DNA of 64,000 bases from Acidobacteriota bacterium. GTDB lineage: Bacteria; Acidobacteriota; Thermoanaerobaculia; Multivoradales; UBA5704. Of this stretch, positions 30,523-59,236 are shown piece by piece. Position 1 is the stretch's first letter, and every line of letters starts with the position of its first letter. A model generated the notes under the pieces. The model made no database searches. It was not told where the DNA came from and saw only the letters and a list, made by a program, of their open reading frames with translations. The DNA is taken from positions 34,641 to 98,640 of the forward strand of contig JBEQUE010000231.1 of the NCBI GenBank assembly GCA_040349255.1. Reading direction: 5' to 3'. A program made the translations under genes and the position numbers.

Positions 30523-32382
30523 ATGTGCGGCATCGCGGGGATCTACCGTTTCCGGTCGGCGCGCCCGGTGGAGCCGGAGGAGGTCCGGACCATGGGCGCC
30601 TGCCTGGCCCACCGGGGGCCGGACGACGAGGGCTACCTCACCGACGGGCCGCTCGGGCTCGCCCACAAGCGGCTGACCATCCTCGACACCTCCTCGCGCG
30701 GGCGCCAGCCCCTGTTCAGCGAGGACGGGCAGTCGTGCATCGTCTTCAACGGCGAGGTCTACAACTTCGTCGAGCTGCGCGCCGAGCTGGAGGCCCGGGG
30801 CGAGACGTTCCGGACGACCACAGACACGGAGGTCATCCTCCGGCTCTGGGAGCGGACCGGCGAGGCTTGCCTCGACCGGCTGAACGGCATGTTCGCGTTC
30901 GCCATCTGGGACAGGCGCCGCCAGGCGCTGTTCATCGCCCGCGACCGCCTCGGCATCAAGCCGCTCTACTGGACGCTGGACGCGGACGGCCTGCGCTTCG
31001 CCTCCGAGATCAAGGCGCTCCTCGCCACTTCCGACCGCAGGCCGGGCGTCAACCTCGACATGCTCGACGCCTACATGAGCGTCGGCTACGTGCCGACCGA
31101 GCGCACGCTGTTCCAGGGCGTCGAGAAGCTCCAGCCCGGCTGGTGCATGACGGTCGACCGGGACGGTCCGCGCCTGCGCCAGTACTGGGACCTGCGGCCC
31201 GAGCCCGAGGACCTCTCCGAGGAGGAGTGCGTCCGGGAGACGCTCGAGCTGCTGCGCGACTCGGTCCGCATCCAGCTCAGGAGCGACGTGCCGCTCGGCG
31301 TCTTCCTCTCGGGCGGCGTCGATTCGAGCGCCGTGGTGGCCCTGATGCACGAGATGGGCGTGCGCGACATCCGCACCTTCACGGTGGCCTACGACTTCGG
31401 GCCGGAGTACGACGAGACGCGCTACGCCCGGAAGGTGGCGGAGCAGTTCAACACGCGGCACCGCGAGGTGTTCGTCACGCCGCGGGAGTTCCAGGAGTTC
31501 ATCCCGTCGCTCGTCTGGCACATGGACGAGCCGGTGACCGAGTCGGCGGCGATCTCGCTCTACTTCGTGTCGAAGATGGCGCGCGAGGACGTGACCGTCG
31601 TGCTCTCCGGCGAGGGCTCGGACGAGGTATTCGGCGGCTATCCGATCTACAGCTACATGCGGACGCTGGAGCGCTACCGCAGGCTGCCGGCGGCGCTGCG
31701 CCGGAACCTGATCAATCCCGCGCTCGACCGGCTCGGTGGCAAGTGGAACAAGTACACGCGGCTCTCCGACCTGCCCCTCCATGAGCGCTACCTGGGCGTT
31801 TCGTTCTACGAGACGCCCGTCAAGGAGGCGCTCTACCGGCCGGAGATCCGAAACCTTTTCAACGGCCACGGCATGCCGGGCTTGATTCAGCCTTTTTACG
31901 AAAAAGCGAAGGGGCTCGACGCGCTCCACCAGATGATGTATCTGGACGTGAAGAGCTGGCTGCCGGACGACCTCCTGATCAAGGCCGACAAGATGACGAT
32001 GGCGAGCTCGGTCGAGCTGCGCGTGCCGTTCCTGGACCACCGGGTGGTCGAGCTGGGGGGCCGTATCCCGTCGCGCCACCGGATCCGGGGCTGGACCACG
32101 AAATACATTCTCAAAAAAGCCATGGAGCCCTATCTGCCGCGCGAAATCCTGCATCGTGGCAAGATGGGTTTTCCCACGCCGCTGGCCCACATGTTCCAGG
32201 GCGAGATGCGCCCGTATGTGGCCGAGGTACTCGGCAGCGACCGCTCGCTCGGCCGCGGCTATTTCAAGCCGGAGTCCGTGCGCGGCCTGGTCGACGAGCA
32301 CATGGACGGCCGGCGGGACCACCACCGGGTGCTCTGGCAGCTCCTCGTGCTGGAGGAGTGGCACCGGTCGTTTGTGGACTGA
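30523..32382 (+). CDS. asnB: Asparagine synthase-like amidotransferase 1
   Basis: N-terminal MCGIAG; HRGPD, RDRLGIKPL, LSGGVDSS and SGEGSDE motifs. Confidence 0.9.
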   Translation: MCGIAGIYRFRSARPVEPEEVRTMGACLAHRGPDDEGYLTDGPLGLAHKRLTILDTSSRGRQPLFSEDGQSCIVFNGEVYNFVELRAELEARGETFRTTTDTEVILRLWERTGEACLDRLNGMFAFAIWDRRRQALFIARDRLGIKPLYWTLDADGLRFASEIKALLATSDRRPGVNLDMLDAYMSVGYVPTERTLFQGVEKLQPGWCMTVDRDGPRLRQYWDLRPEPEDLSEEECVRETLELLRDSVRIQLRSDVPLGVFLSGGVDSSAVVALMHEMGVRDIRTFTVAYDFGPEYDETRYARKVAEQFNTRHREVFVTPREFQEFIPSLVWHMDEPVTESAAISLYFVSKMAREDVTVVLSGEGSDEVFGGYPIYSYMRTLERYRRLPAALRRNLINPALDRLGGKWNKYTRLSDLPLHERYLGVSFYETPVKEALYRPEIRNLFNGHGMPGLIQPFYEKAKGLDALHQMMYLDVKSWLPDDLLIKADKMTMASSVELRVPFLDHRVVELGGRIPSRHRIRGWTTKYILKKAMEPYLPREILHRGKMGFPTPLAHMFQGEMRPYVAEVLGSDRSLGRGYFKPESVRGLVDEHMDGRRDHHRVLWQLLVLEEWHRSFVD

Positions 32383-34409: not shown

Positions 34410-35696
34410 ATGACGGATCGTTCACAGCCCCGCCGGGCCGCGCTCGTCTGCGTGGCGCTCGGGCTGTCCGCGTCTCCTCTCCTGGCCGGTGAATTCCGGG
34501 TCGTCCTGGGCGCGCAGACCGGAGTGCGCAGTGACGGCAACTACGATCAGGTCGAGAACCTGGAGCGTTCGCGGGCCCAGGAGGGCGAGGTGCTGGCGCG
34601 CAGCGCGTTCGACCTCCGGCTCTCCTACGAGTTGCCGCGGATGCGGCTCGCCCTGGATTACAGCCCGTCCTACGAGTGGGTGCTCGACGACGCGGACGTC
34701 AACGGCACGACCCACCGGCTGGAGCTGGGGCTCTCGGGCAACCTGACCCGCCGCCTGAAGGCGACCGTGCGGGAGCGGCTCGCGTCGAGCTCCACTCTCG
34801 ATCTCTACTCCCCCTTCACCGAGGCCGAGACGATCGCGGTCACCCGGCGCGGCGACCAGCTCAGCCACGCGCTCGACGTGGCGCTCGACCAGGAGCTCAC
34901 CCGGCGGACCGCGTTCCTCCTGGGCGTTTCGCACACCCTGCGGACGTTCGAGGAGGAGGACCTGGCCGACAGCGAGACGCTGAGCGCCCGGATCGGCGTC
35001 GGCTTCCGGGTCGCTCCGGAACGGAAGGTGGAGGTGCTGGCCACGGACGGGACCTACGACTTCGGCGACGGAAGCACCGAGCTTCGCCAGCTCGGGCGCA
35101 ACGGCGAGGCGGACGTGAGGACGCTGAGCCTCGGCTGGTCGCAGAAGTTCCTCCGGGATGGGAGCTTCCGCGTCGAGGCCGGCGCGTACTCGGTGGACTC
35201 GACCCGCGTCGGCGGGCTCGCGGAGCGGCGGGTGGAGGAGAGCGACGCCGGCTGGCGCGGCAGCCTGGGCCTCTCCCGCCAGCTCGAATCGTTCGGCTGG
35301 AGCCTCGGCTACCGGCACGACATCTCCGCCGGCGCCGGCTTCGGCCGCGCCGTGCGGGTGGACAACGCGTTCGCCGGCGTCTCGACCCGCGCCGGCCGCA
35401 GCCTGACCCTGGGGCTGGACGCCAACGCCTCGCGCCACGAGGACCTCTCGGAGGAGTCGGCGCGCCTGGTGGAGACGGCGGCCGGCACGGCCCGGTTCCA
35501 GTGGAGCTTCAGCCGCGCGGCGGCTCTGAACGGCGGTATCTCCTACATCCGGCAGGACTCGCAGGTCGAGCCCTTCGAAGATCTTTCCTACTCGCGCTAC
35601 TTCCTCGGCCTGGCACTGCAGCTCTATCGCTCCGGCGAGGAGCCGCGAAGTCCGGCCGATGCAGGAGGGACCGATGACGAACCTGACGCTCAGTGA
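34410..35696 (+). CDS. EPS-associated outer-membrane beta-barrel protein
   Basis: Signal peptide; alternating beta-strand pattern; position between wza and the chain-length gene. Confidence 0.65.
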   Translation: MTDRSQPRRAALVCVALGLSASPLLAGEFRVVLGAQTGVRSDGNYDQVENLERSRAQEGEVLARSAFDLRLSYELPRMRLALDYSPSYEWVLDDADVNGTTHRLELGLSGNLTRRLKATVRERLASSSTLDLYSPFTEAETIAVTRRGDQLSHALDVALDQELTRRTAFLLGVSHTLRTFEEEDLADSETLSARIGVGFRVAPERKVEVLATDGTYDFGDGSTELRQLGRNGEADVRTLSLGWSQKFLRDGSFRVEAGAYSVDSTRVGGLAERRVEESDAGWRGSLGLSRQLESFGWSLGYRHDISAGAGFGRAVRVDNAFAGVSTRAGRSLTLGLDANASRHEDLSEESARLVETAAGTARFQWSFSRAAALNGGISYIRQDSQVEPFEDLSYSRYFLGLALQLYRSGEEPRSPADAGGTDDEPDAQ

Positions 35697-41874: not shown

Positions 41875-43797
41875 ATGTGCGGGATCGCGGGTCTCTTCCT
41901 CTATTCCGAAGGCGGGTTCGCCCGCCGCGAGACGCTGGAGCAGCTCATCCGGCCGCTCCGCCACCGCGGGCCGGACGACGAGGGCTATCTCCTGTCGGGT
42001 CCGCTCGGCCTGGCGCACGCGCGGCTGAGCATTCTCGACCTCGACGGCGGCCACCAGCCGATCTTCAACGAGGACCGCTCGCTCGCGGTGGTCTGCAACG
42101 GCGAGATCTACAACCACCGCGAGCTGCGCCGCGGCCTGGAGAGGCGAGGCCACCACTTCGCCACCGGTTCGGACACCGAGGTGATCGTCCATCTCTACGA
42201 GGAGCTGGGCGCCGGCTGCGTCGAAAAGCTCGCCGGCATGTTCGCGCTCGCCGTGGCCGACTTCCGGCAGCGGAAGCTGCTCCTGGCGCGCGATCGCGTG
42301 GGAAAGAAACCGCTCTACCTGGCCGACGACGGCCGCCGCCTCGGCTTCGCCTCGGAGCTCAAGTCGCTCGCCAACGCCGGGCTCGCAGGGCCGGAGATCG
42401 ATCCCGAGGCGCTCGACCTCTATCTTTCGTTCGGCTACGTGCCCACGCCCTGGACGATCTTCCGCGGCGCCCGCAAGCTGCCGGCCGGCCATCTCGCCAT
42501 GGTCACCGAGGCCGGCCTGCGCGTCGAGCGCTACTGGGATGTCGAGATGCGGCCGGTCGAGGTGGACGAGGAGCGGCTCGTCGAGGACCTGGAGGCGCTG
42601 CTGTCCGACGCCGTGCAGGCGCGGCTGGAGAGCGACGTCCCGCTCGGCGCGTTCCTCTCGGGAGGCCTCGACTCGGGCACGATCGTCTCGTTCATGGCCT
42701 CCGCCATGGACCGGCCGGTGATGACGCACACCGTGGGATTTTCCGACCGCGGGACCGACGAGCGCGAGGACGCCGCGGCCGTGGCGCGTGCGCTCGGCAC
42801 GGACCACAGGGCCACCGAGGTGCGGCCCGATCTCGCCGACGTGCTGCCGCGCATCGCCTGGCACCTGGACGAGCCGTTCGCCGACCCGTCTTCCGTGCCC
42901 ACCTGGTATGTCTCGCGCGAGACCCGGCGGCGCGTGACCGTGGCCCTCTCCGGCGACGGCGGCGACGAGCTGTTCGCGGGCTATGGAAACCGATATGGAC
43001 GATCGCTGATCGAGGATCGGGTGCGCGGTCTGATCCCGGGGCCGGTGCGCAGGGGGCTCCTGCCTCCGCTCGCCCGGACCTGGCCGCGCTCGGCCCGCCT
43101 GCCGCGTCCTCTGCGGATCGGCGGGTTCCTCGGCAACGTTTCCGTGGACCGCGACCGGGCCTATTTCCACGACCGCTCGCACATCCCGCCGCATCTCCAG
43201 GAGCGGCTTTTCGGAGAGGGTCTGCGCGAGCGCCGCCGGCGTTTCGACCCGTTCGTGGCGCTGGAGCCGCACCTCGCCCGCGCGCCGCAGGAGCCGCTGG
43301 CCCGCGCGCTCTATCTCGATCTCAAGACCTGGCTCGCCGACGACGGCCTGGTCAAGGTGGACCGGATGAGCATGGCGCACGCGCTGGAGGTGCGCTGCCC
43401 GCTGCTCGACCACCGCGTGGTGGAGCTGGCCGCCCGCGTGCCGTCGCGGCTCAAGATGGACGGCGGGCGCACCAAGATCCTGCTACGCCGCGTGGCGGAG
43501 CGGCGGCTGCCGAGGGAGATCCTCTCCAGGCCGAAGCGCGGCTTTGCGCCGCCGGTGTCGCGCTGGCTGCGCGAGGACCTGCGCGAGCTGTCGCACGACC
43601 TGCTGCTCGGGCCGGACGCGCTGGCCGGCGGCCTGTTCGAGCGCCGCGAGGTGGCGTCTCTGCTCGGCGATCACGAAGCGGGCCGGCTCGACGCCGGCTG
43701 GGCGATCTGGACGCTGCTGATGCTGGAGGTCTGGGGACGCGAGGTGAACCGGAGCGCCGGCGAGGAGTTGGAGGTGGCGAGTGCCGTCGGCGTCTGA
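41875..43797 (+). CDS. asnB: Asparagine synthase-like amidotransferase 2
   Basis: MCGIAG, HRGPD, LSGGLDSG and SGDGGDE motifs. Confidence 0.9.
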   Translation: MCGIAGLFLYSEGGFARRETLEQLIRPLRHRGPDDEGYLLSGPLGLAHARLSILDLDGGHQPIFNEDRSLAVVCNGEIYNHRELRRGLERRGHHFATGSDTEVIVHLYEELGAGCVEKLAGMFALAVADFRQRKLLLARDRVGKKPLYLADDGRRLGFASELKSLANAGLAGPEIDPEALDLYLSFGYVPTPWTIFRGARKLPAGHLAMVTEAGLRVERYWDVEMRPVEVDEERLVEDLEALLSDAVQARLESDVPLGAFLSGGLDSGTIVSFMASAMDRPVMTHTVGFSDRGTDEREDAAAVARALGTDHRATEVRPDLADVLPRIAWHLDEPFADPSSVPTWYVSRETRRRVTVALSGDGGDELFAGYGNRYGRSLIEDRVRGLIPGPVRRGLLPPLARTWPRSARLPRPLRIGGFLGNVSVDRDRAYFHDRSHIPPHLQERLFGEGLRERRRRFDPFVALEPHLARAPQEPLARALYLDLKTWLADDGLVKVDRMSMAHALEVRCPLLDHRVVELAARVPSRLKMDGGRTKILLRRVAERRLPREILSRPKRGFAPPVSRWLREDLRELSHDLLLGPDALAGGLFERREVASLLGDHEAGRLDAGWAIWTLLMLEVWGREVNRSAGEELEVASAVGV

Positions 43798-50090: not shown

Positions 50091-52058
<1,968 letters not shown>

Positions 52059-52069
52059 GCGGGAGCGGT

Positions 52070-52951
52070 ATGAAGCGCGCGAAGACGATCCTGCGGGTGG
52101 CCGTTTCCGCCGCGCTCGTCGCCTGGGTGCTGCACCGCGCTCCGCTCGGCGAGGTGAAGGACGCCTTCCGCTCCGCGGACCTCCGTTTCGTCCTGCTCGC
52201 CCTGGCCCTCGTCCCGCTCGGCTATTGGGCGAGCGTCTCGCGCTGGAAGCTGCTGATCCGCAGCCAGGGCGGCGACGCGCCGTTCGGTTTCCTCGTCCGC
52301 TCGTTCCTGGTCGGGGTGTTCTTCAACAACCTCCTGCCTTCGACGATCGGCGGCGACGCGGTGCGGGCGATCGACACCGCGCGCTCGGGAGTGGGGCGGG
52401 CAACGGCGGTGGCGGTCGTCGTCGTGGACCGCTTCGTGGGCCTCCTGGCCCTGATGCTCTTCGCGAGCGTCGGCCTCCTGTTCTCCGGCCGCCTGACCGA
52501 CCGCGTGCCCGCTCTCTACGGCTGGTTGGCGGGCGGCGCGGCTGTCCTCGTCGTCATAGCCGCGATCCTCTTCCTGCCCTCGCGGCTCAGCCTTTCCTTC
52601 CAGGGCAAGGGGCTCCTGCTGGCGAAGGCATTCGCGTACTCGCTGGCGCTCCAGACGCTCGTCGTCCTGAACGGCTGGCTGCTGGCGAAGGCGCTCCACG
52701 TGCCGATCGCGCTGCCGGACTTCTTCGTGATCGTCCCGCTCGCCGTCTTCGTCATGATGGTGCCGATCTCGATCAACGCCATCGGAGTCCGAGAGAACGT
52801 GTGGGCCTTCTTCTTCGCGGCCTTCGGAGTGGCAGCCTCGAAGGCGGTCGCGCTGGCCTGGCTCGACTACGGTCTCGTTCTCCTGCAGGCCTTGGTTGGA
52901 GGGGTCTGCTATCTGTTGCCCGAAGAGCGCGCGCTGGGGGTGACGCCATGA
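52070..52951 (+). CDS. UPF0104 / lysylphosphatidylglycerol-synthase-TM (flippase-like) membrane protein
   Basis: FFNNLLPSTIGGDAVR and PISINAIGVRE motifs. Confidence 0.8.
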   Translation: MKRAKTILRVAVSAALVAWVLHRAPLGEVKDAFRSADLRFVLLALALVPLGYWASVSRWKLLIRSQGGDAPFGFLVRSFLVGVFFNNLLPSTIGGDAVRAIDTARSGVGRATAVAVVVVDRFVGLLALMLFASVGLLFSGRLTDRVPALYGWLAGGAAVLVVIAAILFLPSRLSLSFQGKGLLLAKAFAYSLALQTLVVLNGWLLAKALHVPIALPDFFVIVPLAVFVMMVPISINAIGVRENVWAFFFAAFGVAASKAVALAWLDYGLVLLQALVGGVCYLLPEERALGVTP

Positions 52952-54156
52952 AGATCCTCCTCCTCGCGCCGCACCCGTTCTTCCAGCAACGCGGCACGCC
53001 GATCGCGGAGCGCAGGCTCCTGGAGGTGCTGGCCGGCCACGGGCACGAGATCGACGTCCTCACCTTTCCGGAAGGCGAGGACGTCCGGATCCCCGGCTGC
53101 CGGCTCTACCGCATCCCGGCGCTCCCGTTCACGCAAGGCGTCCGGCCGGGCTTCTCGCTCAGGAAGCTGGCGAGCGACGCGGTGCTCCTCCTGGCCTGCC
53201 TGCGCCGGGTGCGCGGCGGCCGGTACGACCTGATTCACGCGGTCGAGGAGTCGGCCTTCATCGCGCTCGCCGCGCGCTGGCTCTTCGGCGTGCCGTACGT
53301 CTACGACATGGACTCCGGGCTGGCCCGGCAGATGATCGACAGGTTCCCGTTCCTGCGCCGCGCGCGCCGCCTCCTGGAAGGATTCGAAAAGGCCGCCGTG
53401 CGCGGCAGCGTCGGGACCCTGGCGGTCTGCTGTTCGCTGGAGGACCAGGCCCGCGCCTGGCATCCGGACGGTCTCGTGGCCTGCGTCGAGGACGCCAGCC
53501 TGCTGACCGGCCAGGAAGCCGAGGCCGACGATCTGCCGGACGGAGACGGCCCGATCGCCATGTACGTCGGCAACCTCGAGCGCTACCAGGGCATCGACCT
53601 CCTCCTGGAGGCGTTCCGCCACACCGTGGCCGAGCTGCCCGGGGCGAGGCTGGTGGTGATCGGAGGAGACGGCGAATCGATCGCCCGCTACCGGCGCCGC
53701 TGCGAGGAGAGGAAGATGACCGGGAGCGTTTTTTTCCTGGGGCCGCGGCCGGTCGAGCGCCTGGGTGCTTACTTGAAGGGCGCCACGGTGCTGGTATCGC
53801 CGCGAATTCAAGGCGAAAATACGCCCATGAAGGTCTACTCCTACCTGGACTCGGGCCGGCCGGTGCTCGCCACGCGGCTGCCCACCCACACCCAGGTGCT
53901 GACCGACGACGTCGCCCGGCTGGCCGAGCCCGAGCCGGAGCCGCTGGGGCGGGCGCTGGCCGGGCTGCTGCGCGACCGCGGGCTGCGGGAGAGGCTGGCC
54001 GCGGCGGCGCGCGACCTCGCGCAGAGGGAGCTCACGCCGCAGGCCTTCGAGAGGAAGCTGCTTCGTTTCTACGATGCGATCGGGGAGAGGATCCGAGAGG
54101 AGAGACGGGATGGACAGACCGCGGGATTCCAGGCTGGACATCAAGGCCATCGCTGA
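52948..54156 (+). CDS. GT4 glycosyltransferase
   Basis: APHPFFQQRGTPI, YVGNLERYQGIDLL and NTPMKVYSYL motifs. Confidence 0.88.
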   Translation: MKILLLAPHPFFQQRGTPIAERRLLEVLAGHGHEIDVLTFPEGEDVRIPGCRLYRIPALPFTQGVRPGFSLRKLASDAVLLLACLRRVRGGRYDLIHAVEESAFIALAARWLFGVPYVYDMDSGLARQMIDRFPFLRRARRLLEGFEKAAVRGSVGTLAVCCSLEDQARAWHPDGLVACVEDASLLTGQEAEADDLPDGDGPIAMYVGNLERYQGIDLLLEAFRHTVAELPGARLVVIGGDGESIARYRRRCEERKMTGSVFFLGPRPVERLGAYLKGATVLVSPRIQGENTPMKVYSYLDSGRPVLATRLPTHTQVLTDDVARLAEPEPEPLGRALAGLLRDRGLRERLAAAARDLAQRELTPQAFERKLLRFYDAIGERIREERRDGQTAGFQAGHQGHR

Positions 54157-56011
54157 CGCGATCGGCGCGGGGCGCGCGAACCCGGGCGCGGCGCTCGCTG
54201 CGCTCGCAGGGATGGACCCGGAAAAGCTCTGCGCCAACGACTACAGCCTGCTCTCCCGGGCGCTGCAGGCGCGGCCCGGCGAGCCGGATGTGAAAGTGGC
54301 CTGCCTCGGCAACTTCACGCTCGACCTGCTGCCGCGCTACATCGACGTGAGCTGCGCCCGGGAAGGCCTGCGGTCATCCTGCTACGTCGGGAAATTCGGC
54401 CAGTACGTCCAGGAAGTGCTCGACGACGCCTCGCCGCTCGTCGAATTCCAGCCGGACTTCGTCGTCCTGGCCCTCTCGCTGCGCCTGCTCCAGCCGGACC
54501 GCATGGCCGCCTTGAGCTCGCTGTCCGCCGAAGAGCGCCGGGCCTTCCGGGAAGAAGTCGTCGCGCACCTGGAATCCTGGGCGGAGAGCGCCGTGAGGCG
54601 GCTGCCGGCGACCGTGCTGATCGGCAACTTCCCGGCGCCCGCCTGGCCGCTCGCCGGCGTGGCCGACGCGAAGGACGACTACGGCGAGGCCGAGCTCTAC
54701 CTGGAGCTGAACCTGGAGCTGCTGCGGCGCTTCAAGGGCAACCCGCGCGTGCGGCTGTTCGACCTGGAGCGCCTCGCCTCGCGCTACGGCAAGGACCGCA
54801 TCCTCGATCCCAAGATGTACTACCTGGCCAAGATGGAGTGGAGCCCGGGCTTCCTGCCGCTGGTGGCGGGCGAGCTGGTGCGCCACGTGAAGGCCGTGCG
54901 CGGGCTCGGCAGGAAGTGCCTGGTCCTCGACCTCGACGGCACGCTCTGGGGCGGCGTCTGCGGCGAGGAAGGTCCGGACGGCGTCAAGTGCGGCCCCGGG
55001 GACCCGGAGTCGGAGGCCTTCCTGGAATTCCAGCACCGGCTCAAGGCGCTCCGCGACCGCGGCATCCTGCTCGCGATCTGCAGCAAGAACAACCGGGCGG
55101 ACGTGGCGGAGGTCTTCGAGAGCCGCCCGGAGATGCCGCTGCGGCTGACCGACTTCGCGGCCGAGGAGATCGGCTGGGAGCCCAAGCACGAGGGGCTGCG
55201 CAAGATCGCGGCGGCGCTCAACCTCGGCGCCGACAGCCTGGTCTTCCTGGACGACAACCCGGCCGAGGTGAGCCTGGTGCAGCAGATGATGCCCGAGGTC
55301 AAGGCCGTGCTCCTGCCGCCGGACCCGGCCGACTTCGCGGCCCTGCTGGAGCGCATGGACGACTTCGAGAAGCCCCGCATCCTGGAGGAGGATCGCCGCA
55401 AGACCGACCACTACCGGGAGAACCGGCAGCGCCAGGAGCTGCAGGCGGCCACGGGCGACCTTCTCCAATACCTCGCGAGCCTGCGCACCGAGCTGGAGAT
55501 CCGGCTGGCGCGCCAGGAAGACCTGGAGCGGGTCCACCAGCTCTTCACGAAAACCAATCAATTCAACCTGACCACGGAGCGCTACTCGCAGGCCGAGGTC
55601 GAGCGCTTCGCCACCTCGCCGGCCTGCGAGCTGTGGGTGGCGCGGGCGCGGGACCGCTTCGGGGACCTGGGCACGATCGGCGTGGTGCTGCTCAAGAAAG
55701 TCGGGCGGATGGCGACGATCGACAGCTTCCTGATGAGCTGCCGCGCGATGGGCCGCGGGATCGAGACCGCGATCCTGAACCACATCAAGCACCGGCTGAT
55801 GGAGGACAGGAGCGGCCTGGAGCTGCGCGGGCGCTACCTGCCGACGCCGAAGAACACTCCGGTGGAAACGTTCTACGAGCAGCAGGGCTTCCGGCTCCTC
55901 GAAAGCTCGCCGTCCGGAGAGAAGCTCTACGGGCTGAGGCGGGACGAGGTGCGGCTCGGGCGCTGCGACTGGATCCGGGTGGTGCACGATGAGCTGGTCG
56001 GAAGTCGATAG
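54110..56011 (+). CDS. FkbH-like HAD-IIIC glyceryl transferase/phosphatase
   Basis: LVLDLDGTLWGG, CSKNN, FLDDNP, KTNQFNLTT and FLMSCRAMGR motifs. Confidence 0.9.
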   Translation: MDRPRDSRLDIKAIADAIGAGRANPGAALAALAGMDPEKLCANDYSLLSRALQARPGEPDVKVACLGNFTLDLLPRYIDVSCAREGLRSSCYVGKFGQYVQEVLDDASPLVEFQPDFVVLALSLRLLQPDRMAALSSLSAEERRAFREEVVAHLESWAESAVRRLPATVLIGNFPAPAWPLAGVADAKDDYGEAELYLELNLELLRRFKGNPRVRLFDLERLASRYGKDRILDPKMYYLAKMEWSPGFLPLVAGELVRHVKAVRGLGRKCLVLDLDGTLWGGVCGEEGPDGVKCGPGDPESEAFLEFQHRLKALRDRGILLAICSKNNRADVAEVFESRPEMPLRLTDFAAEEIGWEPKHEGLRKIAAALNLGADSLVFLDDNPAEVSLVQQMMPEVKAVLLPPDPADFAALLERMDDFEKPRILEEDRRKTDHYRENRQRQELQAATGDLLQYLASLRTELEIRLARQEDLERVHQLFTKTNQFNLTTERYSQAEVERFATSPACELWVARARDRFGDLGTIGVVLLKKVGRMATIDSFLMSCRAMGRGIETAILNHIKHRLMEDRSGLELRGRYLPTPKNTPVETFYEQQGFRLLESSPSGEKLYGLRRDEVRLGRCDWIRVVHDELVGSR

Positions 56012-56237
56012 CCGGGTGAGAGACGTGATGGCCGCGGTGCTCGACGTCCCGGCCGGCGGGATCGGGAACGGCTTTCGAAAGGACGACGCGCCGGCCTGGG
56101 ACTCGATGAACCACCTGAGGCTGGTCTCGGCGCTCGAAGAGGCCTTCGGGATCAAATTCACGATGAAAGAGGTGGGGGAGATGGAGAGCTTCGACGACGT
56201 CCGCCGCAAGGTCGCGGAGCACCTCCAGGCGGCATGA
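55989..56237 (+). CDS. Acyl carrier protein
   Basis: WDSMNHLRLVSALEEAFGI (phosphopantetheine Ser). Confidence 0.9.
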   Translation: MSWSEVDSRVRDVMAAVLDVPAGGIGNGFRKDDAPAWDSMNHLRLVSALEEAFGIKFTMKEVGEMESFDDVRRKVAEHLQAA

Positions 56238-56764
56238 AGCCGGGGACCCTCCTCCGGCGCTTCCTGACGCCCGGCTTCGTAGTGACCCTCCGGGGTTATT
56301 TGAAGTACGGTTGCCTGATCAGCCCGAAGGCGGAGGTGGAGATCACCGCGCACCTGTCGATCGGCCGCGACACGGTGATCGGCTCCTTCACGAAGATCAA
56401 GGCCACGGACGGGCCGCTGACCATCGGCCGGCACGTGGAGATCGCGACCGGCTGCGTGATCACCTCGCACGCCTCGGGCGTCGCGATCGGGAACGACTGC
56501 CTGATCGGCCCGAACGTCTCGATCCTCGGCAACAACTATCGTTATGACCGCCTGGACATCCCGATCCGCCTCCAGGAGAAGGTCTCGCCGAAGGGCATCC
56601 GGATCGGCGACGACGTCTGGATCGGAGCCGGCTGCGTGCTGCTCGACGGAGCCGACGTCGGCCCGGGCTCGATCCTGACGCCGAATTCCGTGGTCTCGTC
56701 CCGGATCGCGGAGAACTCGATCGTGCAGGGTAATCCGGGCAAGGTGATCTTCACGCGGCGGTAG
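56234..56764 (+). CDS. Hexapeptide-repeat (LbH) acyltransferase
   Basis: IGNDCLIGPNV and IRIGDDVWIGAG motifs. Confidence 0.88.
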   Translation: MKPGTLLRRFLTPGFVVTLRGYLKYGCLISPKAEVEITAHLSIGRDTVIGSFTKIKATDGPLTIGRHVEIATGCVITSHASGVAIGNDCLIGPNVSILGNNYRYDRLDIPIRLQEKVSPKGIRIGDDVWIGAGCVLLDGADVGPGSILTPNSVVSSRIAENSIVQGNPGKVIFTRR

Positions 56765-56810: not shown

Positions 56811-57452
56811 ATGGTTTTCGGGGAGCTGCTGGAGATCGTCGGGGAAGAGCCGGTCTTCGAGACCGGGCTCCTGCTGGCCGGCGCGGTCGATCCCCAGGAT
56901 GTCCGGCGCCAGCTTTCCCGGTGGACCGGCGCCGGGCGCCTCTACCAGCTCCGCCGCGGCCTCTATGCCCTGGCTCCGCCGTTCCGGAAGGGGAAGCCCC
57001 ACCCCTTCCTGGTGGCGAACCGCCTGGTCCTCGGCTCCTATGTGAGCCTGCAATCGGCCCTGGCCTACTACGGGCTGATTCCGGAGGCCGTGCCGGTGAC
57101 CACCAGCGTCACCCCCGATCGACCGGGTCGGTGGGACACGCCGCTCGGAACCTATGAGTTCCGTCATCTGCAGGCCGACCTCCTGACCGGCTACCGATGG
57201 CTGGAGATGACGGACGGGCAGTTCGCGTACGTGGCGAGCCCCGGGAAGGCCCTGCTCGACCTGATCCATCTGGAGCCGGAGGCGGACTCGTCCCGATACC
57301 TGGAAGGGCTGCGCCTTCAGCACCTGGAGATGCTCGACAGGGACGAGCTTCGGCACATGGCCGCGCTCGCGGGGAAGCCCAAGCTGAAACGGGCCGCAGA
57401 GCGGATCGTCGAGCTCGCGGAGCGGGAGTCCGAGGAGTACGAGACCCTGTGA
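56811..57452 (+). CDS. AbiEi-like type IV antitoxin / regulator
   Basis: wHTH-like LYQLRRGLY; SYVSLQSALAYYGLIPE; ASPGKALLD. Confidence 0.85.
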   Translation: MVFGELLEIVGEEPVFETGLLLAGAVDPQDVRRQLSRWTGAGRLYQLRRGLYALAPPFRKGKPHPFLVANRLVLGSYVSLQSALAYYGLIPEAVPVTTSVTPDRPGRWDTPLGTYEFRHLQADLLTGYRWLEMTDGQFAYVASPGKALLDLIHLEPEADSSRYLEGLRLQHLEMLDRDELRHMAALAGKPKLKRAAERIVELAERESEEYETL

Positions 57453-58255
57453 AGGAGAGATTGAAGGAACTCGTCCGCGCCAGCCCGGATGCGACGGAAG
57501 CCCGCAACCGGATCCGCGAATATCTCCAGGCGGAGATCCTGGCCTCGCTCCAACGCTCGGGCGCGATGGTTCCGCTCGCCTTCCAGGGCGGGACGGCCTT
57601 GCGCTTCCTGTATTCGATCCGGCGGTTCTCCGAGGATCTCGACTTTGCCCTGGAGAGGCCCGAGGGCGGATACGACTTCCGGAAACTCGTGAAGGCCGCT
57701 CAAGCCGACCTGGCCCGGAAGGGGCACGCAGTCGAGGCGCGGGTCGGCGATCAGAGGACCGTCCACAACGCGTTTCTACGGTTCCCGGGCCTCCTGTCCG
57801 AGCTGGGCCTGTCGCCGCACGCCAACGAGATCTTCTCGATCAAGCTGGAGGTGGACACCCGTCCGCCTGCCGGAGCGGGCCTCCTGACGACGCTCGTCCG
57901 CAGACATCAGACCCTGCGTCTTCAACACCACGATCCGGCTTCCCTGCTGGCGGGAAAGCTCCACGCCATCCTGCAGCGCCCCTATCCGAAAGGGAGGGAC
58001 ATCTACGACCTGATCTGGTACCTGAGCGATCCGGGCTGGCCCTCGCCGAACCTCATCCTGCTCAACAACGCCCTGGCGCAGACCGGCTGGAACCGCGGGA
58101 TTCTTGCCCCGGACGACTGGCGAAGCGCGGTGAGCGATCGTCTCAAGGACCTGGACTGGCCGAGGATCGTGGCCGACGTCCGGCCTTTTCTGGAATCTCC
58201 CGCCGATACTGCTCTTTTGAGTCGCGAAAGCCTCGACCTTCTGCTGAAGCGCTGA
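57449..58255 (+). CDS. AbiEii/AbiGii nucleotidyltransferase toxin
   Basis: FQGGTALR...RRFSEDLDF, KLHA and GRDIYD motifs; GTG start overlaps the upstream TGA. Confidence 0.9.
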   Translation: MKERLKELVRASPDATEARNRIREYLQAEILASLQRSGAMVPLAFQGGTALRFLYSIRRFSEDLDFALERPEGGYDFRKLVKAAQADLARKGHAVEARVGDQRTVHNAFLRFPGLLSELGLSPHANEIFSIKLEVDTRPPAGAGLLTTLVRRHQTLRLQHHDPASLLAGKLHAILQRPYPKGRDIYDLIWYLSDPGWPSPNLILLNNALAQTGWNRGILAPDDWRSAVSDRLKDLDWPRIVADVRPFLESPADTALLSRESLDLLLKR

Positions 58256-58316
58256 GCCTCGCGCACATCCAGGCACAAGGCAGGTCTCCCGTTCCGGGCC
58301 ATGCGATAATCCGCCG

Positions 58317-58817
58317 ATGGCTCTGGCTGGCTCCACGACGCAGACCCGCGAGCAGGTCTTCCCCGTGCTTCTTCGCGCCTGTGAAGAGGTCTACGGCGGG
58401 CGGCTGATCGCGGTGGTGATCTTCGGCTCGAGCGGCCGCGGAACGGCCAGGCCCGATTCCGACGTCGACCTTCTCCTCATCGCCAGCTCTCTGCCCCACG
58501 GACGCATGCACCGGGTCGAGGAGTTCGAGGAGGTCGAGAGGCGCCTTGGCGAGCTTCTACCGCCGGAGCTTGGATCCGTTCCTCCTCTTTCACCCGTCCT
58601 TAAGACGCCTGAGGAGGTCGGCCATGGTAGCCCCCTCTTCCTGGATATGACCGAAGATGCCCGGATTCTTTTCGATCGGGAGTGTTTCTTCTCCCGGGAG
58701 CTCGACAGGCTCCGGACGCGCCTTGCGGAGCTCGGCGCTCGACGGATCTGGCTCGGCAACGCCTGGTATTGGGACCTCAAGCCCGACTACCGTCCCGGCG
58801 AGGTCTTCGAGCTGTGA
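58317..58817 (+). CDS. Minimal nucleotidyltransferase (MNT)
   Basis: FGSSGRGTARPDSDVDL. Confidence 0.88.
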   Translation: MALAGSTTQTREQVFPVLLRACEEVYGGRLIAVVIFGSSGRGTARPDSDVDLLLIASSLPHGRMHRVEEFEEVERRLGELLPPELGSVPPLSPVLKTPEEVGHGSPLFLDMTEDARILFDRECFFSRELDRLRTRLAELGARRIWLGNAWYWDLKPDYRPGEVFEL

Positions 58818-59236
58818 CCAACCTCTCGCTGGCGCAGAGCTATCTTCTCAAGGCGAGATCACGCCTGAAGATTCTCCAGGTTCTGCTCGACGAAGAAGCG
58901 TTCTCCGATGTAGTCCGGGAGGCCCAGGAGATCGTAGAGCTTTCTCTCAAGGGCATGCTGCGGCAGGTGGGAGTCGAACCTCCCAAGTGGCATGACGTAG
59001 GCGGCTTTCTGTTGGAGTTCGATGACCGCTTCCCGGCCGTGACACGAGACCGGCTGGAGCAACTGGCCCAGATCTCCGCCCGTCTGCGCAAGGAGCGCGA
59101 GTTCTCGTTCTATGGCGATATCGACTTCATCCCGACTGAGCAATATTCGCGCGAGGACGCTCATCGGGCGATTGCCGAGGCTCAGATGACCGTTGAGGCG
59201 GCCGCCGGGATCATCCCTGCGCTCTCAGCCGAGTAG
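58814..59236 (+). CDS. HEPN-domain protein
   Basis: AQEIVELSLKG, PPKWHDV and REFSFYGD; coupled to the MNT gene. Confidence 0.85.
   Translation: MTNLSLAQSYLLKARSRLKILQVLLDEEAFSDVVREAQEIVELSLKGMLRQVGVEPPKWHDVGGFLLEFDDRFPAVTRDRLEQLAQISARLRKEREFSFYGDIDFIPTEQYSREDAHRAIAEAQMTVEAAAGIIPALSAE

Follow-up and report, generated by a model that had tools for sequence, protein, structure and literature searches.

A candidate glyceryl-tailoring cassette of FkbH, acyl carrier protein and hexapeptide acyltransferase genes in the exopolysaccharide operon of a Thermoanaerobaculia genome

FkbH enzymes are known from polyketide pathways as loaders of glyceryl units onto acyl carrier proteins (ACPs). In the mechanism reviewed for OzmB, 1,3-bisphosphoglycerate is turned into a phosphoglyceryl-S-enzyme, then into a glyceryl-S-enzyme and finally into glyceryl-ACP (PMC9057759), and the long FkbH Tmn16 is reported to have loaded glyceryl in vitro from D-1,3-bisphosphoglycerate onto discrete ACPs (PMC3625739). 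Here we analyzed a 64,000-nt window (the whole stretch of DNA under study, with a G+C content of about 70%) from contig JBEQUE010000231.1 of the genome of a soil bacterium of the Thermoanaerobaculia, in which genes for a long-form FkbH, an ACP and a hexapeptide acyltransferase of the left-handed beta-helix (LbH) type overlap at the end of an exopolysaccharide (EPS) operon. With a probability of roughly 55%, we consider that these three genes form a thiotemplate-style tailoring module, in which FkbH would make glyceryl-ACP and the LbH enzyme would pass the glyceryl group to an EPS sugar. The loading chemistry is known, and its predicted use on a glycan in this locus would be a new variant.

Several described systems resemble the cassette in part. 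In the tetronate type (Tmn16/ChlD1/AbyA2 with the discrete ACPs Tmn7a/ChlD2/AbyA3), as in the window, a three-domain FkbH of ~620-630 aa stands beside a stand-alone ACP of ~80 aa (AbyA2 has 622 aa and AbyA3 about 78 aa; PMC3625739), and the HAD motifs and the Cys are conserved in both. In the tetronate pathways, however, a FabH-like enzyme condenses glyceryl-ACP with a polyketide, whereas the polysaccharide operon of the window has no polyketide synthase (PKS) or FabH-like gene and carries an LbH gene after that of the ACP. The FkbG-K and OzmB/D/E/F/G systems, which make methoxymalonyl-ACP or hydroxymalonyl-ACP, share with the window the HAD and Cys transferase core and a dedicated ACP (PMC9057759), but they use a short FkbH (~360-400 aa, without FkbH_N), two dehydrogenases and often a methyltransferase, none of which is found in the window cassette. 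The lactyl DH-KR-FkbH-ACP starter modules of trans-acyltransferase (trans-AT) PKSs and the free-standing FkbH/ACP/MaoC-SDR/LbH cassettes of glycan loci are also related, but the window cassette lacks the MaoC-SDR. In Dlt-type and FkbH/ACP/MBOAT systems, surface polymers likewise receive small acyl groups from a dedicated carrier protein, but the transfer takes place across the membrane via MBOAT and DltD-like proteins, whereas a soluble LbH enzyme would act in the cytoplasm before export in the window. LpxA and LpxD are LbH trimers that take an acyl group from ACP onto the O or N of a UDP-sugar. They are a precedent for an ACP-dependent LbH enzyme, with weak local matches only, and the window LbH is not a member of either family because its size, acyl chain and catalytic His differ.

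Glyceroyl groups on surface sugars are exemplified by Pse5Am7Gra of Tannerella forsythia and by the di-O-methylglyceroyl pseudaminic acid of Campylobacter jejuni. Glyceroyl-decorated bacterial sugars have been described with their genes called unknown and the genetic basis called a major challenge (PMC5378307). The nonulosonic acids of C. jejuni include 2,3-di-O-methylglyceroyl forms (PMC3068675), and its flagellin glycosylation locus holds a gene with an fkbH domain, cj1302 (PMC7099621). In the literature searched, which left most subscription journals outside it, we found no study in which an FkbH, ACP or LbH enzyme was tested in glycan acylation and nothing relevant that linked FkbH to polysaccharide, capsule or O-antigen, and no glyceroyl transferase enzyme was found in the literature from 2018 on. 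The present analysis adds an ACP linkage test seeded from the LbH gene, a swap of the loader, a glycosyltransferase that travels with the cassette, and the missing catalytic His of the LbH enzyme. If the proposed role is true, it would give a genetic basis for glyceroyl or short hydroxyacyl groups on surface sugars, add to LpxA and LpxD another class of LbH enzymes that depend on acyl-ACP, and help to annotate more accurately the thousands of genes now labelled 'HAD-IIIC phosphatase / acyltransferase' in bacterial and archaeal polysaccharide loci. On this view, the biofilm polysaccharide of the organism is predicted to bear a hydrophilic, anionic-neutral decoration.

Codon-position GC showed an uninterrupted run of + strand genes from ~33.7 kb to ~56.8 kb of the window, and it also backed the five consecutive + strand genes at 52070-56764 (GC3 0.9-0.99). 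These encode a flippase-like membrane protein of the UPF0104/LPG_synthase_TM family (52070-52951, +; PF03706 143 bits, TIGR00374 55.5 bits), a GT4 glycosyltransferase (52948-54156, +; PF00534, PF13692, PF13439), the long-form FkbH of 633 aa (54110-56011, +; TIGR01686, PF21211 FkbH_N), the ACP of 82 aa (55989-56237, +; PF00550, NF006031 33.7 bits) and the LbH acyltransferase of 176 aa (56234-56764, +; PF00132 62 bits). Successive genes overlap by 4, 47, 23 and 4 nt, and identical gene lengths and overlaps were called independently on the contig of a relative (L001). A preliminary description of this DNA had reported overlapping FkbH, ACP and LbH genes after a UPF0104 protein and a GT4, which codon-position GC and family matches bear out; the span of 52070-56764 that it gave for the triad holds as a gene block but also takes in the UPF0104 and GT4 genes, the triad itself occupying 54110-56764. 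It had also placed the triad at the end of the EPS operon. This was confirmed, as the genes after LbH differ among relatives and LbH is therefore the last conserved gene of the operon; a simple scan found no hairpin terminator after it. The described lack of PKS and MBOAT agrees with our scan, in which neither family matched any of the ~40 larger window genes (a subset of the window open reading frames).

The FkbH of the window is most likely a glyceryl loader using 1,3-bisphosphoglycerate, as predicted from its domains and residues. It consists of FkbH_N, a HAD-IIIC phosphatase domain and a C-terminal GNAT-like transferase domain bearing the thioester Cys. The match to TIGR01686 (HAD-IIIC) reaches 302 bits against a cut-off of 146.65 and covers profile positions 3-321 of 323, and an unpublished structure, that of BF1531 from Bacteroides fragilis (PDB 3slr, E 2.8e-54), aligns with its N-terminal and HAD parts. 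In an alignment of 30 diverse homologues, which are 27-66% identical to the window FkbH and include the genome's own classical paralogue, the HAD residues D274, D276, T278, S325, K359, D381 and D382 were invariant, as were T482-N483-Q484 and S543-C544-R545. Following the OzmB mechanism as reviewed and the motif around the Cys, we take C544 to be the thioester site. The family is large, with 14,510 representatives at E <= 0.001.

A second, short FkbH of 401 aa without FkbH_N is encoded on a different contig of the genome (G000:C253:46859-47782, - strand, equal to L004:8665-12176). It belongs to a set of the hydroxymalonyl-ACP type made up of a 3-hydroxyacyl-CoA dehydrogenase, an ACP of its own, an acyl-CoA dehydrogenase and FkbH. 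No PKS was present in the 19 kb read at this locus, and a GH1-like protein, a PALP enzyme and an aminotransferase are encoded nearby.

The ACP scores exactly at the PF00550 cut-off (20.8 bits), and its phosphopantetheine serine is S39 in the WDSM motif (W37-D38-S39). Among 26 cassette ACPs taken from beside FkbH or LbH genes, W37 and S39 were invariant and D38 was at least 90% conserved. The linkage between FkbH and ACP was surveyed in 80 loci from species-representative genomes of many bacterial phyla and of archaea (Nitrososphaeria, Asgard and DPANN), in which the genes of relatives were identified via homology matches on all six frames. Seventy-five loci offered enough DNA to judge: in 63 of them an ACP followed FkbH at a distance of at most 700 nt, and 10 others carried one at a different position. 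The FkbH-ACP pairing is near universal. The first gene after the pair varied among 54 loci (MaoC in 12, LbH in 5, GNAT in 4-5, VOC in 3, CE4 in 2, MBOAT in 1 and an AAC(3)-like gene in 1), as would fit a shared donor module whose tailoring or transfer enzymes can be exchanged.

One protein of ~370-410 aa recurs directly after FkbH-ACP (L038, L040, L050, L056, L058, L065-L069, L073, L076, L079 and L083). Many of these loci are of Acidobacteriaceae type; the others include one of the Myxococcaceae (L073) and one of the Lysobacteraceae (L076). The three proteins that were scanned (L038, L065 and L073) matched no Pfam family, with a faint GDSL-like hint in L073 alone. This protein may be an undescribed partner enzyme of glyceryl-ACP.

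The reverse test, a search seeded from the LbH gene in metagenome contigs (relatives with at least 300 nt upstream), showed that close LbH relatives are linked to ACP. Among relatives of at least 185 bits (~52% identity or more), an ACP was immediately upstream in 30 of 38 and on the same strand in the locus in 35 of 38, compared with 7 of 33 and 11 of 33, respectively, among relatives of 100-185 bits. The co-occurrence analysis that the preliminary description had proposed as a check has thus been run from both sides, from FkbH (63/75) and from LbH (30/38). On the LbH tree, the window row falls in a starred (98*) clade of 18 rows, all of them ACP-adjacent. The ACP label changes 10 times on this tree against a shuffled mean of 25 (0 of 500 shuffles that low), which is a measure of clustering and not of independent events, because related rows share labels. 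LbH orthologues (>100 bits) were located beside only those FkbH genes that are most similar to that of the window (L006-L009, L020, L021 and L026). Their hosts are Acidobacteriota, Thioalkalispiraceae, Geminicoccaceae, Falsiroseomonas, Azospirillum, Spirochaetales and Calothrix, with Alphaproteobacteria, Gammaproteobacteria and Cyanobacteria among them.

The loader can be replaced while the pair of ACP and LbH is kept. Locus L109 (4750-8140) carries an ACP, an LbH 58% identical to that of the window, a sulfotransferase, an AMP-binding enzyme and then an orthologue of the window GT4, and no FkbH was found in its 10.5 kb. Because ACP-LbH is paired here with an AMP-binding enzyme, the ACP-LbH pair appears to be constant and the loader changeable, and such a swap is expected of an enzyme that draws its acyl group from a carrier.

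These linkages bear on whether the LbH enzyme could instead be a conventional sugar O- or N-acetyltransferase working with acetyl-CoA and having no functional tie to the neighbouring ACP, with glyceryl-ACP used by the FemAB-like GNAT of the operon, the GT4 or an unlinked transferase. Its best family and PDB matches are indeed acetyl-CoA enzymes (WbbJ, WcaF, maltose and galactoside acetyltransferases, and Vat), and the FemAB-like acyltransferase would be available as the other user. An ordinary acetyltransferase does not account well for an ACP kept immediately upstream of LbH in 30 of 38 relatives, also with a non-FkbH loader, and LbH reached no NCBIfam equivalog cut-off. Moreover, the FemAB-like family is core to the XrtA system and does not travel with the cassette, and most triads elsewhere have no other acyltransferase nearby. 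We regard this explanation as unlikely.

Linkage to ACP would be expected equally if the LbH enzyme acted on the ACP-bound unit, acetylating a hydroxyl of glyceryl-S-ACP with acetyl-CoA, with another enzyme off-loading the product. Such an acetylation precedes elimination in tetronate pathways, where it follows the use of glyceryl-ACP (Mad17/Agg4). The Agg4-type enzymes, however, are not LbH proteins, the operon holds no off-loading enzyme, dehydratase or FabH-like gene, and LbH is the sole candidate transferase in the minimal triads L008, L020 and L021. This makes LbH action on the carrier-bound unit quite improbable. Transfer of the glyceryl group from ACP by LbH, as the preliminary description had proposed, is supported by the comparative evidence, namely the intact FkbH residues, the adjacency of FkbH and ACP, and the linkage of LbH to ACP.

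The sequence of the LbH enzyme also departs from the known acetyltransferases. The best NCBIfam equivalogs were far below their cut-offs (WbbJ 53.7 bits vs 243, WcaF-family 50.6 vs 192), and the LpxD models were likewise sub-threshold over partial stretches (42.5 vs 207 and 38.5 vs 242.5 bits). The N-H-x-x-D / t-H-P motif, which bears the catalytic His of LbH O-acetyltransferases of the MAT/GAT/Vat type in the loop that precedes their final coils, is not present in the window LbH. In HMMER alignments, which compare sequence only, the catalytic His of maltose acetyltransferase (3hjj) and of Vat aligned with Y102, and the NeuO alignment placed the catalytic His at Y104. The motif N-Y-x-[YF] is conserved in ~90 members of the LbH family, with His solely in L009 and L123. 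We also considered His versus Tyr as a signature separating ACP-linked from unlinked LbH enzymes and rejected it, as Tyr is family-wide.

The AlphaFold (AF2) model of LbH, with a predicted local distance difference test (pLDDT) score of 91.3, shows two N-terminal helices followed by a beta-helix of regular short strands. Its best structural match, also with the longest coverage, was AntD, the Bacillus cereus D-anthrose N-acyltransferase (PDB 3vbi and others), which places a short hydroxyacyl group onto a nucleoside diphosphate (NDP)-4-amino sugar (Z 22.4, root-mean-square deviation 2.4 A, 157/176 residues, N-terminal helix covered). AntD differs in being an acyl-CoA user and is 19-20% identical to the window LbH. 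The likeness is a resemblance and not a family assignment, because many LbH structures score within 1-2 Z units. The structure search was thus uninformative for separating CoA users from ACP users, all LbH structures scoring within about 2 Z units (Z 20-22 for many of them).

We also predicted the complex of the LbH trimer with the ACP. The score was 0.42, against 0.00 for the best of three controls; the runs agreed in at least 90% of contacts, and the partner pLDDT was at least 82. Of 80 solved complexes, 58 attained the mark used for such predictions, compared with 2 of 110 mismatched pairs, and scores of at most 0.60 that pass the mark comprise just 7 of the 80 solved complexes plus both passing mismatches. 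The prediction lends weak support to ACP as the donor.

Several observations weigh against the proposed role of the triad, the weakness of this complex prediction being one of them. The canonical catalytic His is absent from LbH, and the LbH relatives of solved structure, whether detected by sequence or by fold, are all acyl-CoA users. The statement of the preliminary description that LbH enzymes normally use acyl-CoA overlooked the acyl-ACP-dependent LpxA and LpxD. One starred subclade of 21 rows on the LbH tree has no ACP nearby, although the linkage is the rule elsewhere on the tree. Four loci (L088, L089, L103 and L162) carry ACP-LbH without FkbH within 5 kb, and L005 carries FkbH without ACP or LbH. 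Finally, this uncultured lineage has no known EPS that contains glycerate.

Some of these loci have features of their own. The rows of the 21-row subclade (L124, L127, L130, L134-L138, L140-L145, L147, L149, L151, L153, L154, L159 and L164) often have an SDR gene that follows at a distance of ~300 nt, and some have a UPF0104 gene upstream in the opposite orientation. In L088 and L089, the LbH is 77-78% identical to that of the window and adjoins RHS-repeat and ribonucleotide reductase genes. In L005 (7900-8230), from a Thermoanaerobaculia metagenome-assembled genome, a 67%-identical FkbH is followed by an inverted repeat with arms of ~150 nt and by unrelated genes. The cassette seems to have been broken up by rearrangements in some relatives. 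It is also sporadic among the genomes of the class that were sampled, because LbH was found at E <= 1e-30 in just 2 of 121, the genome of the window counted. Metagenomes, in contrast, yielded hundreds of proteins with 70-90% identity to this LbH. In three genomes of the same family, the UPF0104, long FkbH and FemAB-like genes of this locus were absent.

The acyl group transferred is probably glyceryl here, because the operon has no MaoC-SDR and the genome no MaoC-domain match to it. In the sister loci L007 and L026, the gene order is FkbH, ACP, a MaoC-SDR fusion, an LbH 60-61% identical to that of the window, and then GT4. In some trans-AT PKS loading modules, a MaoC-dehydratase/SDR set makes lactyl from glyceryl on the carrier, and these sister cassettes, judged by their gene content, probably make lactyl rather than glyceryl. 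No MaoC-SDR is present in the operon of the window. A search of the genome with the sister fusion returned no MaoC-domain match, and generic SDR parts alone were hit (query residues 274-538), none of them on the contig of the window. The 3-hydroxyacyl-CoA dehydrogenase of FkbK type and the acyl-CoA dehydrogenase of FkbI type are absent from the operon and occur only at the second FkbH locus.

Some of these loci also speak for a unit other than glycerate, which would arise if this FkbH clade loaded another phosphorylated acid or if unlinked enzymes converted glyceryl-ACP to a lactyl, pyruvyl or hydroxymalonyl form. MaoC-SDR stands between ACP and LbH in L007 and L026, MaoC is the commonest gene after FkbH-ACP (12/54), and the second FkbH cassette of the genome has FkbI- and FkbK-type dehydrogenases. 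Yet that cassette lies on another contig with its own ACP, the genome has no MaoC-domain match to the sister fusion, and the catalytic residues of the window FkbH are all canonical. We give a non-glycerate unit little credence.

Orthologues of the GT4, which score 160-640 bits against 20-50 for generic GT4 proteins, share loci with the cassette across phyla (L005-L007, L013, L020, L021, L026, L085, L092, L096, L101, L109, L119, L131/132 and L147). Because the orthologue travels with the cassette, including at L109 with its other loader, GT4 may be the enzyme that handles the acylated sugar, and it may add the sugar that is acylated. Orthologues of the UPF0104 gene adjoin the cassette in L005, L013, L085, L092, L096, L117 and L119, that is, less often than GT4, in Thermoanaerobaculia and some other loci.

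The UPF0104 protein could point to a different product, in which the five-gene block makes an acylated glycolipid or lipid-linked primer and the MprF-like UPF0104 protein serves as its flippase, with no decoration of the polymer. UPF0104 matches the flippase-like transmembrane domain of MprF and co-occurs with the cassette in several lineages, the permuted locus L119 included. It is, however, absent from most cross-phylum triads (L006-L008, L020 and L026), and the block lies within a complete Wzy-type EPS operon and shares its orientation, so that a glycolipid product is very unlikely.

Decoration of the EPS by the triad could proceed as follows. FkbH would take 1,3-bisphosphoglycerate, supplied by glycolysis, to form phosphoglyceryl-S-Cys544, a step suggested by the chemistry of the family and by the intact residues; the HAD domain (D274/D276) would strip the phosphate, and D-glyceryl would move to the phosphopantetheine arm on S39 of the ACP. 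The small cytoplasmic LbH trimer would then take glyceryl from ACP rather than from acyl-CoA, as the gene linkage suggests. On the cytoplasmic face, the glyceryl group would be attached to a sugar hydroxyl or amine, either in a nucleotide sugar or in an undecaprenyl diphosphate-linked repeat unit, and the acylated sugar is probably the residue handled by the travelling GT4. Polymerisation and export of the decorated unit would fall to the Wzy/Wzz/Wza-type proteins that the operon also encodes. The group would probably stay glyceryl (2,3-dihydroxypropanoyl) here, whereas sister cassettes would reduce it to lactyl.

A broader proposal, which we put forward tentatively and at slightly less than even odds, is that the LbH family comprises general carrier-dependent sugar acyltransferases that work without acyl-CoA or the usual His, draw short hydroxyacyl groups from a dedicated ACP and have exchangeable loaders (FkbH for glyceryl, FkbH with MaoC-SDR for lactyl, and an adenylating enzyme for other acids). 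Together with GT4, they would form a mobile 'thiotemplated glycan tailoring' module, which would explain genetically how surface sugars of bacteria and archaea come to carry glyceroyl and lactyl groups.

Judged by its gene families, the operon is an XrtA/PEP-CTERM-type EPS operon of a Thermoanaerobaculia genome. It contains Wza, a Wzz/GNVR protein, a tyrosine-kinase-like P-loop protein, a priming sugar transferase, several GT4 and GT2 enzymes, a Wzy_C/DUF5935 protein, two AsnB-type amidotransferases, a CE4 deacetylase with DUF3473 and a FemAB-like GNAT. Four XrtA-system families exceed their curated cut-offs: the sugar transferase TIGR03013 (474 bits vs 393), the O-ligase-like TIGR03097 (316 bits vs 188), the CE4 polysaccharide deacetylase TIGR03006 (46192-47022, +; 388 bits vs 276) and the FemAB-like GNAT TIGR03019 (47019-48095, +; 374 bits vs 260). 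The exosortase XrtA was not found in the 94%-complete assembly, where the best TIGR03109 match, on another contig, reached 25 bits against a cut-off of 208. The preliminary description had named the FemAB-like enzyme as an alternative user of glyceryl-ACP. This is unlikely, and we rejected it as the main user, since its family is defined by the XrtA system and does not accompany the cassette.

The CE4 deacetylase is of interest for the acceptor. In four Nitrososphaeria-type loci, the archaeal CE4 matches the XrtA-type deacetylase of the window with 113-141 bits. The presence of CE4 and LbH beside FkbH-ACP in these archaea hints at a swap of N-acetyl for N-glyceroyl, and it is speculative that the CE4 deacetylase of the window supplies a free amine for N-acylation. 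Because of the CE4 deacetylase and the AntD match, N-glyceroylation of a de-acetylated or amino sugar is as plausible as O-acylation. The four loci (L015, L023, L025 and L029), from ammonia-oxidising archaea of the Nitrosopumilales and relatives, carry the CE4 gene and a distant LbH gene adjacent to each other, upstream of FkbH-ACP and on the opposite strand. The pair is located at about 4.4-5.9 kb, or about 2.0-3.5 kb in L025, and directly abuts FkbH in three of the four.

Three AsnB-type amidotransferases are encoded in or beside the EPS locus, one just upstream (30523-32382) and two within (41893-43797 and 50091-52058). They score 545-618 bits against the XrtA-system family TIGR03108, all under its cut-off of 817, and this trio points to a polymer in which several carboxyl groups are amidated. 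A gene of the operon at 34494-35696 (+), flanked by those for Wza and the chain-length determinant, encodes a 400-aa protein with no Pfam or NCBIfam match. Directly 3' of the operon, toxin-antitoxin genes of the AbiEi/AbiEii type together with a nucleotidyltransferase/HEPN pair occupy 56811-59236 (+), and the 46-nt gap before AbiEi holds an inverted repeat.

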